A stretch of DNA of 64,000 nt, from assembly GCA_000614405.2 (NCBI GenBank), contig GCA_000614405.2_3612.1. One strand, 5' to 3'. Source of the stretch: Escherichia coli O157:H7 str. 2011EL-2287. Its GTDB lineage: Bacteria; Pseudomonadota; Gammaproteobacteria; Enterobacterales; Enterobacteriaceae. The translations under genes and the position numbers were made by a program. Under the pieces are notes generated by a model. It saw only the letters and a program-made list of their open reading frames with translations, searched no databases and had not been told where the DNA came from. Shown piece after piece: positions 28,600-51,631 of this stretch (its first letter is position 1; each line of letters begins with the position of its first letter).

Positions 28600-28659
28600 T
28601 AAGATGTAAGTCTAAAGGGGAGGCACTCCTCCCCACAAAAACTAAGGAAGCACTAAACG

Positions 28660-29868
28660 ATGAGTAAAACCAAATTAGAACTTACCTGGATAGGTAAAAA
28701 CGAGCGCAAAAAGTTAGAGCCGCACATTTTGTTAGAAGATTCTAGCAAATCTTACCACAGCCAGAAAGTGACCGAAAACGATATTTTTGATAATAAACTG
28801 ATTTTTGGAGATAACTTATTAGCATTGAAGGCGCTAGAGCAAGAGTATGCAGGTAAAGTGAAGTGTGTTTACATAGACCCGCCATTCAATACCGGGAGGG
28901 CTTTTGAGCACTACGATGATAGCCTGGAGCATTCCATTTGGCTGGGCTTAATGAGGGATAGGTTAGAAATAATTCGTAATCTTCTAAGTGATGATGGGGT
29001 AATATTCGTTCACTTAGATGATTGCGAAATGGCGTATTTAAAAGTTTTGATGGACGAGATTTTTGGTCGTGCAAATCAGTTAAATACCATATCGATGACC
29101 ACAAATTCCCCTTCGGGATTTAAGGCAACAGGAGCCACAGTTTTCTCCACAGCAAACTTTTTGCTTGTATATGCAAAAGATCGCACCCAGAAACCGCTTA
29201 ACAAAATCTATATACCTAAAGGGTATGATACAGGGTATAACAAATACTTATTAAACCCGGACGACCATTATAAAAATTGGACGTGGTGCGGTATTGCCGA
29301 TGCGTTTGCAAAGGCCAATGGCTATAAAGATGCAAAAGAAGCCAAGAAAAAACTGCCTGATACATTCGATGATGAATTAGCACAATTCGCAATTGATAAT
29401 GCAGAACGTGTATTTCAATCTGTTGCAATTGGTGGTGGAGCTAAAATAAAGAGAAAAGAAACTATCGAGAAGTCAAAGAGAGATAGGAATAAGGTTTATG
29501 TACATCCAAATGAGGATGTTGAAGGATTTTATATCGCAAATGGTAGGCAAATGGTCTTTTACTCCAATAGACTTTTGGAAATTGACGGTGAGATGCAACC
29601 TGCAGAACTAATAACTGATGTTTGGACAGACATTAGTTGGAATGGAATAGCAAATGAAGGCGGCGTTAGTTTCAAAAATGGGAAAAAACCAGAAGCTCTT
29701 TTGAAGCGGATTTTCGAAATGTGTACGCTAGAAGGCGATTTGGTATTGGATTCATTCGGTGGTTCGGGAACTACTGCTGCTGTAGCTCACAAGATGAAAA
29801 GACGTTGGATCTCAATCGAGCTAGGTGATCATTGTCATACCCATATTATTCCGCGCTTGGAAAAGTGA
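28660..29868 (+). CDS. Mod-like (beta-class) N6-adenine/N4-cytosine DNA methyltransferase
   Basis: N-terminus LTWIGKN...DNKLIFGDNLLALKAL; motif IV IDPPFNTG precedes motif I DSFGGSGTT (beta-class order). Confidence 0.8.
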   Translation: MSKTKLELTWIGKNERKKLEPHILLEDSSKSYHSQKVTENDIFDNKLIFGDNLLALKALEQEYAGKVKCVYIDPPFNTGRAFEHYDDSLEHSIWLGLMRDRLEIIRNLLSDDGVIFVHLDDCEMAYLKVLMDEIFGRANQLNTISMTTNSPSGFKATGATVFSTANFLLVYAKDRTQKPLNKIYIPKGYDTGYNKYLLNPDDHYKNWTWCGIADAFAKANGYKDAKEAKKKLPDTFDDELAQFAIDNAERVFQSVAIGGGAKIKRKETIEKSKRDRNKVYVHPNEDVEGFYIANGRQMVFYSNRLLEIDGEMQPAELITDVWTDISWNGIANEGGVSFKNGKKPEALLKRIFEMCTLEGDLVLDSFGGSGTTAAVAHKMKRRWISIELGDHCHTHIIPRLEK

Positions 29869-29997
29869 TCGATGGTGAAGATCAAGGGGGTATTTCTAAG
29901 TCTGTAAACTGGCAAGGTGGTGGTGGCTTCCGCTATTACAAACTTACTCCGACCTTAATTACGAAAGATAAGTCTGATCAATAAAGAGTACAATCAA

Positions 29998-31198: not shown

Positions 31199-31228
31199 GG
31201 CCCTGCCCGAAAGGGTGGGGCTTTTTGC
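31199..31228 (+). terminator. rho-independent terminator
   Basis: Hairpin GCCCTGCCC-GAAA-GGGTGGGGC followed by TTTTT; same sequence recurs at 41622. Confidence 0.6.
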
Positions 31229-31242
31229 ATTAGGAGACAGCA

Positions 31243-32009
31243 AATTGAAATTCATCTACAAAGAACACTACCACAAAGGTGTTGTGTGGAGCCTATTTGA
31301 CGGGTCTGGTGGTGCAGTTATTGACTGGGCAAAAGCTGGGTACCTGTGCCTGTGCTTTAATGCAGAAGGTGCTGACCACGGCAGTTATGCAGAGGTGATC
31401 ACCGATCATCCAAATATTCACTATGTAGATTATTGGATTGATCCATGGTTCCCTCAGGAAACTTTCTGCATGTACCCAGCTCCGGACTTTGTTCTTGCAT
31501 TTCCTCCGTGCACCCACTTAGCGGTGTCAGGTGCTGCACACTTTAAGAAGAAGCTGGCTAAGGACCCGCTGATCCAGATTAATGCTGTAAAGGATGCTCG
31601 GGTTGCAGAAGAGTTGGGAGAGATTTACGATTGCCCGTGGCATGTAGAGAATCCTGTGGGTGTTATGTCCACACTGTGGCGCAAACCTGATTACCGTTTT
31701 CACCCTTCTGACTATGGCGGGTATTTACCGGAGGATGATGTAAACCCCTGGTTTCCTGAATTTATAGCTCCACGTGATGCCTATCCAAAAATAACTTGCG
31801 GCTGGATAGGTAATGGATTTATAATCCCGGCCACAAAACCTGTCCCGCAAATAGTTGACGCGGTTAGCGGGTATTCCATGCAACACGCCAAGCTGGGTGG
31901 AAAGAGTGCAAGAACGAAGATGATCCGAAGCCTCACACCACGTGGCTGGGCAAAAGCCGTATTCTTAGCAAACGAGCCTGTAGTAAGGAGCAGAATTAAT
32001 GGGAAGTAA
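31243..32009 (+). CDS. DNA (cytosine-5) methyltransferase
   Basis: Motif I SLFDGSGG, motif IV FPPCTHLAVSG, motif VI HVENPVG; probable TTG start after AGGAGA RBS (ORF track starts at 31215). Confidence 0.65.
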
Positions 32010-34135: not shown

Positions 34136-36559
34136 ATGAGCATGTGGTCGTTCGACTTTGAGTCATCCGGTTTGCTGGAAGACCCAGATCTTTATTATCA
34201 CTGCGGCCTGTTTAAAGAGCTGAATAAGAACCGTTTTATGCTGTTCCTTCCTCTAAATGACCGCACACACTACTCCGAGGAGGATATAGAAAAGGCTAAG
34301 AACTTCATTCTGGCAAAGAAAACTCTTTATAAAGATTTTGAAGTTCGCATAGCAGATTTTTCAGAGTTGGAAGGTTGGCTTACAGGAAATTCTGACTGGT
34401 CACCAACAGCTTTGAACTGCCATAACTGCTACAGTTATGACTTTATGCTGATGGAAAGATTATCTGGTATTCATTTTGATATGTTCCGTGATCCTAAATG
34501 TATGGGGACTATCAACGATCACCAGGTTAACCTGTTTGATACGTTGGCGATGAGCCGAATCTTGTGGCCTGATCGCCCTTTACCAAAAGGTTGTCCGGAC
34601 TCTGTATTCAACCCGGTTACTAAGAAAATGCAGCCTGTTGGTCCTCACGGCCTTATGGCATGGGGCTACGCCCTTGGTAACCAGAAAGTTCAAATTGATG
34701 ACTGGCGCGATCTTCCGTTATGGAAGTATGTGGATCGTGTATTTGAGGACGTTATCATCCAGGAGCTGCTCTGGAAAGAGCTGGTAGCGGAATCAAAAGG
34801 TGTATTCTACGGCAAATCTGACATGCAGAACTTTATGTACGATCCTGCCAAAGAGAAGCCGAAAGGGTTCAAGAAGATCACCTGGAAGAACGCATTACGT
34901 CGAGGCATGTTGCAGCACTTCCTGATGGAGCTGCAGGCCCGTCAGGGTGTATACTTCGACATAGATGGAGCTATTGCTTTACGTGACCGTTGCGATGCGT
35001 GGATGAAAGAAATCGCTGATCGTGTTGAACCACAACTGCCTTTAAAAGAGCTGTTAATGTCTCAGCGGCCCAAGTTCCCTGAAAAGCCGTTTAACCAAGA
35101 TGGGACAATCTCTAATAATGGTTGGAAATGGTTAAAAGATAAGCTTGGCTATCCTGTGGACATGAGTGCTTTAGAGTTCAAAGCCCCACCTAAGCGAGCA
35201 TTTACCTCTACAGGAGATGTCAGTAAGATGGGGATAAAATGGTGTGAAGAGATGGGCTGCAAAGACCACGATAAGATGGCTGATTTCTTGAGAGGCTATA
35301 TTAAGGGCACCTCCACACCACAACCTTTACCTAAAGAGCTGATGGATCAGGCAATAAGCGATCTGCAGCAGAAGCGAATGCCTGACTGCAAGATACCTAT
35401 GAAAATCAGCAATCAGGACGATATTAAGCGATACCTGATCAGTGCTGGTTGGCTTCCGACAATGTGGAGAACTAAGGATGTAACTAAAGACAGCAAGAAG
35501 AAAGCTTTACCTGATGCAGATGTTGATGCACGAGTATATGCATATATGGACGAGCTTTTGGAGTCAGAGTATTGTGACCTAATTATCAACTTCTGGAACA
35601 AAACTGATGCTAAGTTCCAGACAACCGTGCACAAGTTCCGAAGCTTTCCTAACTCCGAAAGGATTAAAAAGGAAGTATTCGGGAAAATACGTAGAAAAGC
35701 TAGGGCACTTATTACTTCTCCGCAACTGAAAGATACGTTTGGACACCTGTGTCCGAATCTTGAAAAATTGAACGGAGAGATGGCTAAAGATATCGTCTTA
35801 TGGTTATCATTGCGAAACCGCAGATCGGTCCTTGATCCACTCAAGGAGGATAAGGTTGACACTGGTCTTCTTAATCACCCACGCTTGAAGATTGACCATA
35901 AGCTTCCTGCTAAAAGTTCTGGGCTAACAAACACTTCCAGACAGAAACACAGTATTTGTGCAAACATGCCTAAACCATCTCCTAAAGTGGTTATGGGTAA
36001 AGAGATGCGTAGTCTATGGGGTGTTCCTCCGGGATACTTTGAGATCGGTATTGACGGGTCCAACTTAGAGCAGCTTATCGGAGCTTGGGGTGCCTTTGAG
36101 TTCGACAACGGCTTGTATTATGATGTTGTAAGTAACGGGGACGCACACCAAAACAATGCTGAGGCATATACAAAAGTAGCAGGTAGAGAGGTGTCTCGTA
36201 ACGACGGTAAACCTATCACGTATGGGGTTATGTACGGGGCACAAAAAGATAAAGTTGCAGACATGCTGGATATCTCTCCAGAGTTGGGACAAAGGGTAAT
36301 CGATGCACTCTGGGATGCCAACCCTGGTCTTAAGGGGCGCAAAGAGGATCTGGAGAAATTCTGGGAAGCAACAGGTAAGAAGTTTATCTACTCTTTTGAT
36401 GGTCATGCTATCTGGACCCGATCTAAACACTCTTTACTTAATGCATACCAACAGAATGGTGGTGCATCGCTGTGTGACTTAGTTGGGATACTCATGCACC
36501 ACCAAATGGTGAAGCGTGGGTGGTACGATGAAGGTGTTCGTCGTATTATTTATTACCAT
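34136..36559 (+). CDS. family A DNA polymerase, exon 1 (3'-5' exonuclease + polymerase motifs A and B)
   Basis: Exo I FDFESSG, HCGLF and WGYALG align to T7 gp5 as I recall it; motif A GIDGSNLEQLIGAWGAFEFDNG; motif B RNDGKPITYGVMYGA; ORF stops right at the His of motif C. Confidence 0.85.
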
Positions 36560-36835
36560 AAATAACATTGTGGCTTCATAGAGTAATCTATGTCGAATAA
36601 CCTCTTTAACTGCGGGAAGCCTAAACCTTATGGCAAGGTAATCCGCAACGAAGCGCTCAAAAGAGCGAACGCTCAGAGGCCATTCCGAAAGGAAGTAGAC
36701 CAGCAAGTGCGGTCGAAATGGGAGGATTCCTGTGGTTGCTTATCATAGGAATATGAGATGGTCCGATCCTACGTGAAAACGTATGGCTATGCACGTAATG
36801 GTGCGGGGTAGCTTAACGACCTACCTGAACTATTG
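36560..36835 (+). ncRNA. group I self-splicing intron (no ORF) in DNA polymerase gene
   Basis: Inserted between His and Asp-Glu of motif C; follows exon U, ends with G; GUGG guide near 5' end pairs with exon CCAU; core elements AACUGCGGGAAG, AAUCCGCAAC, GUAGACCAGC, GAGAUGGUCC. Confidence 0.7.
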
Positions 36836-37189
36836 GATGAGTACCAACTTCAGGTCCCTGACACACCTAAGTATAAGACTGTGTACACCTTCGACACAAT
36901 TGAAGAACTGGAAGCATTTAAGGCAGAGCAGGAAGCCAAACTTCATGTGTTCGACGGTCATAAGTACAAAAAGGCACGCAAGGATGAAAACGGAAACGAG
37001 GTGGTTGACAGAGACGGAAACACGGTGTACGATCCTATCCTGAACGATGACGGAAAGCTTGAACTTATCTGGAGCCCTGTGGGCGAGATGGTGGTACATT
37101 GCTTCTGGCAAGCTTCTAAAATGATGGGAGTCCCGTTCCAGATCACAGGTGAATACTTGTGTGGTCGTAACTGGGGTGATTGTCACTAA
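36836..37189 (+). CDS. family A DNA polymerase, exon 2 (motif C Asp-Glu to C-terminus)
   Basis: Begins DEYQLQV (cf. HDEIQV of T7 gp5); ends GRNWGDCH, matching the conserved Pol A C-terminal NW..H. Confidence 0.65.
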   Translation, partial: DEYQLQVPDTPKYKTVYTFDTIEELEAFKAEQEAKLHVFDGHKYKKARKDENGNEVVDRDGNTVYDPILNDDGKLELIWSPVGEMVVHCFWQASKMMGVPFQITGEYLCGRNWGDCH

Positions 37190-37238
37190 TGTAAACTATC
37201 AGCACAGGGAGGTGCTGTTGAGCAAAGAGGAGACTTTT

Positions 37239-51602: not shown

Positions 51603-51631
51603 GCCCCCGATCATGGGGGCTTAACTTTTTC
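51603..51631 (+). terminator. rho-independent terminator
   Basis: Hairpin GCCCCC-GATCAT-GGGGGC + TTAACTTTTT. Confidence 0.5.

Follow-up and report, generated by a model that had tools for sequence, protein, structure and literature searches.

A frameshift in a Type III Mod-like methyltransferase gene of an rV5-like Escherichia coli phage, probably a recent pseudogene of an accessory gene

Does the methyltransferase gene that begins at position 28,660 of the DNA analyzed here end where its reading frame stops, or has it lost its 3' end to a frameshift? The stretch in question (hereafter the window) comprises 64,000 nucleotides, one strand of a contig in the assembly of Escherichia coli O157:H7 str. 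2011EL-2287. The original prediction, made from the letters alone, held that a Mod-like methyltransferase ORF ends in ...IIPRLEK at a TGA at 29866, that the -1 frame then stays open for about 49 codons, an openness with a chance probability of roughly 10%, and that one extra A within GGAAAAG would fuse the two frames. We read the same ORF (Table 1), with a C-terminus of ...IIPRLEK followed by TGA at 29866-29868. The other frame is free of stops for 51 codons (29829-29981) and reads ...GKVIDGEDQGGISKSVNWQGGGGFRYYKLTPTLITKDKSDQ up to a TAA at 29982-29984, while the frame change falls within GGAAAAG at 29859-29865. The chance of such an open stretch is 7.6% when calculated from the frequency of stop triplets and 11% when taken empirically from runs in non-coding frames of this window, close to the original estimate. 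With chance openness at 8-11%, the open frame alone proves nothing and homology must decide. From 29865 to 29981, the downstream frame encodes 39 residues, VIDGEDQGGISKSVNWQGGGGFRYYKLTPTLITKDKSDQ, that match the C-terminus of the intact enzyme, and because of this homology the question of chance openness is beside the point.

Table 1. Coordinates of the features of the methyltransferase locus in the window
Feature	Coordinates	Strand	Details
Ribosome-binding region CTAAGGAAGCACTAAACG	28641..28659	+	One G shorter than the GGAGAGCACCAAACG of the other methyltransferase-bearing phages examined
Captured cassette, homologous to a Type III mod gene on the E. coli chromosome	28655..29993	+	93.6% nucleotide identity (blastn against L009, from strain APEC E16002)
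Truncated methyltransferase ORF	28660..29868	+	402 aa and TGA; DPPF at residues 73-76, FGGSG at 366-370; PF01555
A4 run, site of the 1-nt deletion	29861..29864	+	A5 in all relatives examined; puts TGA 29866-29868 in frame
Orphaned 3' end of the gene	29865..29984	+	39 codons (V403-Q441 of the intact protein) and TAA, out of frame

The window belongs to an rV5-like E. coli phage (Vequintavirus), and the region is 97.5-98.7% identical to FFH2, V18, Phage 203, RudolfGeigy and others. In these relatives the methyltransferase locus lies between genes for proteins of 113 aa and 101 aa, downstream of a gene for a PIF1-like helicase, and the window has the same arrangement, with 113-aa and 101-aa hypothetical genes as neighbors. 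FFH2 ORF213 (AHN83803.1), V18 ASJ80560.1 and RudolfGeigy bas52_0070 are the same gene at the same locus, a putative adenine methyltransferase of 441 aa with 97.5-98.7% nucleotide identity. The window differs from them in having A4 instead of A5 at the deletion site, which brings a stop at codon 403, and in a weaker upstream ribosome-binding allele that was otherwise seen only at empty sites. About 16 GenBank records in the range MG065635-MG065690, entitled 'UNVERIFIED: Campylobacter phage ...' with C. jejuni as host, are 96-98% identical to E. coli rV5-like phages and look mislabelled or contaminated.

The shorter A run sets the window apart from every other sequence in which we could read the site. 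FFH2, Phage 203, V18 and ECO111 5-P read GGAAAAAG there, in alignment exactly one A more than the window, which is the extra base that the original prediction had called for, and an intact 1326-nt CDS for 441 aa is annotated in all four. When a 75-nt probe centered on the frameshift site was matched to INPHARED, all 64 phage records found carried A5; the A4 allele occurs in none of them, since each match spans one base more than the query (76 nt or equivalent). Six of six further metagenomic or Logan contigs also carry A5, bringing the count to 70 of 70 other sequences, and the homologous E. coli host gene likewise has A5 here, as CAAAAAG. Exact-pattern scans of IMG/VR returned a match for neither the A4 nor the A5 allele and are thus without weight here. 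An authentic C-terminus at the stop, shared by homologous enzymes and followed by a peptide devoid of homologs, is not what we found: the repaired 441-aa protein is covered over 99-100% of its length by more than 100 homologs of 441-637 aa, and among the homologs matched to it, no natural one ends at the stop position of the window.

The gene otherwise bears little sign of decay. It has a single private substitution, which is synonymous and lies outside the orphaned tail, and the tail is identical to FFH2 at the nucleotide level, so the event, if real, is very recent. The intact phage alleles show a median pairwise dN/dS of 0.08, and such purifying selection indicates that the 441-aa form is functional.

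What kind of enzyme does the gene encode? The product scores 143.5 bits (E 1.2e-41) with PF01555 (N6_N4_Mtase), for which the gathering cut-off is 26.7, and its residues 67-393 cover 216 of the 221 profile positions, so that the match already ends at residue 393. The order of motifs is that of the beta class, with motif IV (DPPF) preceding the target-recognition domain and motif I (FGGSG) following it, and D73, P74, P75, F366, G368 and G370 are invariant in 105 homologs. Searches of the PDB with phmmer returned the Helicobacter pylori Mod (6k0w, 1.5e-28), EcoP15I Mod (2.5e-24) and also Mbo45V Mod, and the top Foldseek matches were 4zcf, 6k0w and 7dsu, the best being EcoP15I Mod (4ZCF, E 8e-21). 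The label 'Mod-like' was thus well chosen: the best matches of solved structure are Type III Mod proteins, and a 96%-identical E. coli homolog is a Type III Mod encoded beside Res. By these sequence features, the gene product can be classed as a beta-class N6-adenine methyltransferase of the Type III Mod type.

The segment beyond the stop is conserved. In the alignment of 105 homologs (58-95% identity), G411, G421 and G423 are invariant, and G406, D408, W418, G420, G422, F424, L429, A430 and P431 are nearly so. By phmmer, GFRYYKLTP aligns to residues 505-514 of EcoP15I Mod, in agreement with the earlier suggestion that this Gly-rich stretch resembles the C-terminus of full-length Mod proteins. 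An AlphaFold model (mean pLDDT 84, pTM 0.77) places a strand at 361-364 (motif I), a helix at 371-378, a strand at 382-387 (motif II), a helix at 391-405 and a strand at 423-429, with a mean pLDDT of about 92 for the block 421-430; on this model, a stop after residue 402 removes the end of helix 391-405, the Gly-rich loop and the last strand (423-429).

EcoP15I Mod, the archetypal Type III methyltransferase, allows these losses to be placed on a solved structure. It shares with the phage enzyme the beta-class motif order and the tail motif GF(R/K)xYxL, but the two are only about 19% identical, and EcoP15I Mod has a Res-contacting C-terminal domain that is absent even from the intact 441-aa phage form, which ends at the equivalent of about EcoP15I residue 522. 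The methyltransferase domain of EcoP15I comprises aa 62-262 and 390-516, and the Res-contacting C-terminal domain aa 539-644 (PMC4490356). Because the aligned EcoP15I residues fall within its methyltransferase domain, the lost segment is part of the catalytic domain. All relatives have the catalytic domain entire, up to the last core strand that follows motif II, while in the window residues 403-441 are gone. With strand 423-429 aligning inside the methyltransferase domain of EcoP15I Mod, conservation and predicted structure together indicate that the 402-aa protein is probably inactive or unstable, most likely misfolded or unable to bind S-adenosylmethionine, with residual activity possible.

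Where did the phage obtain the gene? Its homology with a chromosomal E. coli mod gene begins 5 nt before the ATG. Of 5426 complete E. coli genomes, 29 have this host gene (24 of them at 80% coverage or more), which encodes a Mod of 567 aa (WP_213054361.1 / P0003) with 96% amino-acid identity over the whole phage gene. PADLOC MTase_III matches the host Mod from end to end (E 6e-284), and its gene is followed by that for a 912-aa Type III Res (REase_III, E 9e-191), the mod-res pair (QQA28_RS04500 and QQA28_RS04505) lying within a defense island of strain APEC E16002. That island (L009, 2919-13464) also holds a MADS mad1-like HTH gene, a gene for a DrmD/SNF2-like helicase, and AbiD-like and AbiU/AIPR-like genes, and it adjoins IS66 remnants.

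The host and phage genes contain the same A-runs but differ at their 3' ends. At about 29974/29975 (window 29970-29993 against L009 10310-10349) the phage gene is 11 nt shorter than the host gene, a deletion that closes the phage frame, and because of this deletion before the stop codon, the phage protein stops at the boundary of the methyltransferase domain and is without the C-terminal domain. The host Mod thus goes on for some 126 residues more, which make up the C-terminal domain, and has res as its partner, whereas the phage copy has neither: no res gene adjoins the methyltransferase among its neighbors in the window, and a mod-res operon was seen only for the E. coli homolog. On the grounds of its homology to host mod, the missing C-terminal domain and the lack of a res neighbor, we regard the phage gene as an orphan Mod-derived methyltransferase captured from an E. 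coli Type III mod.

Such an enzyme would presumably methylate the DNA of the phage itself at the sites recognized by the cognate host system, and so let it escape restriction. In the literature on rV5-type methyltransferases we found annotation-level mentions only and no characterized specificity. In the BASEL study (PMC8594841), Vequintavirinae were reported as exceptionally sensitive to the restriction systems that were tried, which is compatible with protection by the intact enzyme only if that protection is site-specific. A second methyltransferase gene, 1.2 kb downstream in the window (31215-32009), is intact and encodes, by the RudolfGeigy annotation, a Dcm-like C5-cytosine methyltransferase, so the phage keeps at least one other DNA-modification gene.

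The methyltransferase gene is accessory. When related phage records were searched with a probe across the empty site, 29 of 117 proved to lack the gene cleanly, and the Logan contigs L013 (4740-4775) and L016 likewise have a 100-aa gene directly after the 113-aa gene. The ATG of the downstream gene marks the point where the insertion begins. Short sequence matches are present at its two junctions (ACGATGA / AAATG), which suggests that illegitimate recombination brought the cassette in. The downstream gene starts with ATGATG (MMKRY...) in methyltransferase-bearing phages and with ATG (MKRY...) in the others.

Comparison with the empty sites also accounts for the sequence just upstream of the gene. 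The upstream allele of the window, AAGGAAGCACTAAACG-ATG, is identical to that at the empty site of methyltransferase-less phages, and the window is the only methyltransferase-bearing genome in which we saw this short allele, for which the predicted anti-Shine-Dalgarno pairing is -6.0 kcal/mol, compared with -9.1 kcal/mol for the other allele. A 1-nt deletion at 28649 was considered as a second private hit on the gene and rejected, the same allele being present at methyltransferase-less empty sites. The short allele is instead a natural polymorphism, ancestral or recombinant, and because it is common to methyltransferase-less phages it gives no evidence for either selection or error. Between the 113-aa gene and the methyltransferase start lies a perfect stem-loop (GGGGAGG-CACT-CCTCCCC, 28617-28634) without a T-run on the + strand, which is kept in all relatives, including the methyltransferase-less ones.

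Several relatives carry broken alleles of the same gene, which we took from the protein collection (phage-sized contigs). In the 347-aa allele, the A6 run at window 29683-29688 is shortened to A5, and this allele is found on five or more different sequence backgrounds, O157 typing phage 14 among them. In that phage (KP869112; AKE47181.1, 347 aa) an independent A-run frameshift has left the gene annotated as two CDSs; compared with the window, the site is another one, the stop comes earlier and motif I is lost. The 389-aa allele has A7 in the same run, the 316-aa allele a 1-nt deletion within GCAAATGG, and the 320-aa allele an 11-nt duplication, which sits at a direct repeat, CAAATGGT-AGG-CAAATGGT. 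Length changes of the A6 run at window 29347-29352 underlie the 239-aa and 217-aa alleles, and the 342-aa allele has lost 99 residues in frame, DPPF with them. The window-equivalent positions of the disruptions in relatives are 29683-29688, 29347-29352 and 29531-29545. Among curated phage genomes, broken alleles are rare: the gene is split in two in one of 60 listed records (O157 typing phage 14), the 60 being an even draw from 94 matching records of which about 87 are rV5-like; in EmilHeitz, also among the 60, the match begins only at residue 42. Homopolymers of at least 5 bases are about twice as dense in the gene as on average in the window, the longest being A6, and these runs are inherited from the host gene. 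Such a spectrum of disruptions is what one expects from the neutral decay of a dispensable, homopolymer-rich gene.

The same pattern could be read as recurrent, selected switching-off of a captured Mod, with the frameshift of the window as one instance. The gene would then be kept while the phage meets hosts with the cognate Type III system and lost where self-methylation is costly or targeted by methylation-dependent defense, and the routes of loss may include A-run frameshifts, the 11-nt duplication, the in-frame deletion and deletion of the whole cassette. The presence/absence polymorphism and the at least seven independent disruptions fit selection and neutral decay alike, and we consider this reading distinctly doubtful.

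Is the missing A a mutation of the phage or an error of the assembly? A length change of one nucleotide in a homopolymer is the classic type of sequencing error, the A4 allele is unique against the 64 phage records and six contigs, and there is no decay downstream of the frameshift, all of which would be seen if the phage had A5 and an intact 441-aa gene and the consensus had dropped one A. Against this, a run of 4-5 bases is short for systematic errors, and comparison over about 48 kb with four relatives revealed neither scattered homopolymer indels nor another broken ORF. Nineteen indels separate the window from all four relatives, and of these only the one at the methyltransferase site interrupts a reading frame. 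The other private indels are intergenic, one pair being a compensatory hairpin change, or fall in a divergent patch of a tail-fiber ORF that is still intact over 1891 codons, and their distribution argues that the assembly is free of general homopolymer noise. The intergenic pair, at window 51603-51614, consists of two window-private 1-nt deletions (G and C) that flank an inverted repeat, GCCCCC-GATCAT-GGGGGC; together they appear to have shortened the stem of a terminator-like hairpin in a compensatory way.

The truncated product is also on record elsewhere: the identical 402-aa protein is present at NCBI (WP_149009229.1 and EFJ7314476.1, filed under E. coli) and on two contigs of the separately produced Logan assembly, the longer of 136,654 bp, though the NCBI and Logan records may share one sequencing run. 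In relatives, moreover, the 11-nt duplication and the 99-aa in-frame deletion cannot be homopolymer errors. With no second gene broken by a private indel, and with the 402-aa protein recorded elsewhere, we favor a real, recent mutation over an error: we think it probable that the change is in the DNA and not in the assembly alone, and an artefact unlikely. That the protein is filed as E. coli's on a contig of 136,654 bp means that a phage genome sits inside an E. coli assembly; the phage is of lytic type, and its presence in an isolate assembly would reflect contamination or a carrier state.

If the mutation is real, the 402-aa protein might still be an active methyltransferase, a shorter functional isoform. 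It keeps motifs IV (DPPF), I (FGGSG) and II (WISIEL), and residue 393 is as far as the PF01555 match extends. Some short beta-class enzymes, too, have little sequence past motif II. If, as the usual methyltransferase fold suggests, the lost strand is beta-3, its place would be an edge of the sheet. But the lost residues are invariant in 105 homologs down to 58% identity and belong to a segment that in EcoP15I is within the methyltransferase domain proper, the tail is present in all intact phage alleles, where purifying selection is strong, and none of the homologs matched ends here. An active short form thus seems improbable.

Full-length enzyme could in principle be made from the frameshifted gene by programmed recoding, that is by -1 frameshifting or transcriptional slippage at GGAAAAG, or be restored by phase variation. 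An AAG lysine codon stands just before the stop (G GAA AAG TGA), and a lysine tRNA on AAG directly before a stop could slip on rare occasions. Type III mod genes are classically phase-variable, and several independent frameshift alleles of relatives fall in A-runs. Yet the shift is not conserved, the relatives all being in frame, G GAA AAG is no X XXY YYZ heptamer, the RNA downstream folds no better than shuffled controls (z = -0.69), and Rfam returned no match, and we rejected programmed frameshifting for want of structure, Rfam element and conservation. As for phase variation, the phasevarion mod genes of Haemophilus, Neisseria and Helicobacter are likewise mod ORFs that are switched off by a change in the length of a simple repeat, but they have long tracts (many tetranucleotide units or long homopolymers) and high switching rates. 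The tract at this site has 4-5 bases and a length that differs in one genome only (A4 in the window, A5 in 70 of 70 other sequences), tracts of A4-A6 are far shorter than those known to be phase-variable or slippage-prone, and the host gene already has the same A-runs, which the phage gene inherited without change; on these grounds, phase variation was rejected too. Recoding or phase variation therefore has next to no probability. Of the three explanations offered originally, then, a recent truncating mutation is favored, sequencing error is possible and less likely, and slippage is unsupported.

The DNA polymerase gene of the window (34136-37200) is broken into more than one ORF as well. Its first ORF (34136-36565, 809 aa) ends in ...IIYYHK*, coding restarts a few codons on (MSNNLFNCGK...), and more stops lie beyond. 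In RudolfGeigy the polymerase is annotated as a CDS joined from two pieces, and the end of the first ORF is identical to that of the window over the 110 nt compared. Unlike the methyltransferase frameshift, which is not conserved, the conserved polymerase break is a candidate for a split gene, an intron or recoding.

The explanation that we favor, with a probability of roughly three in four, is a recent frameshift pseudogene of a dispensable, host-derived accessory phage methyltransferase gene. A phage lineage captured mod from a Type III restriction-modification system of E. coli. In its normal phage form, of 441 aa, the protein has an N-terminal domain, a methyltransferase core and a target-recognition domain and is without the Res-contacting C-terminal domain; the intact enzyme would mark phage DNA at the sites of the cognate host system and evade restriction. 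In the lineage of the window, one A would then have been lost from the A5 run, so that translation ends at TGA 29866 and the last 39 residues go unmade; with them the methyltransferase domain loses the end of the helix past motif II, its conserved Gly-rich loop and its last strand. The resulting protein would be misfolded or unable to bind S-adenosylmethionine, leaving a very recent pseudogene of a dispensable gene.

The finding is thus an ordinary frameshift truncation of an accessory phage gene that was already known, and it bears on annotation, since RefSeq WP_149009229.1, filed as an ordinary E. coli 'site-specific DNA-methyltransferase', is actually a frameshifted phage gene. This phage is probably without the adenine methylation pattern of its relatives and would therefore be restricted by E. 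coli with a cognate Type III system. More widely, the locus would be a tidy but unsurprising case in which a phage captures a gene against restriction and loses it again when it is not needed.
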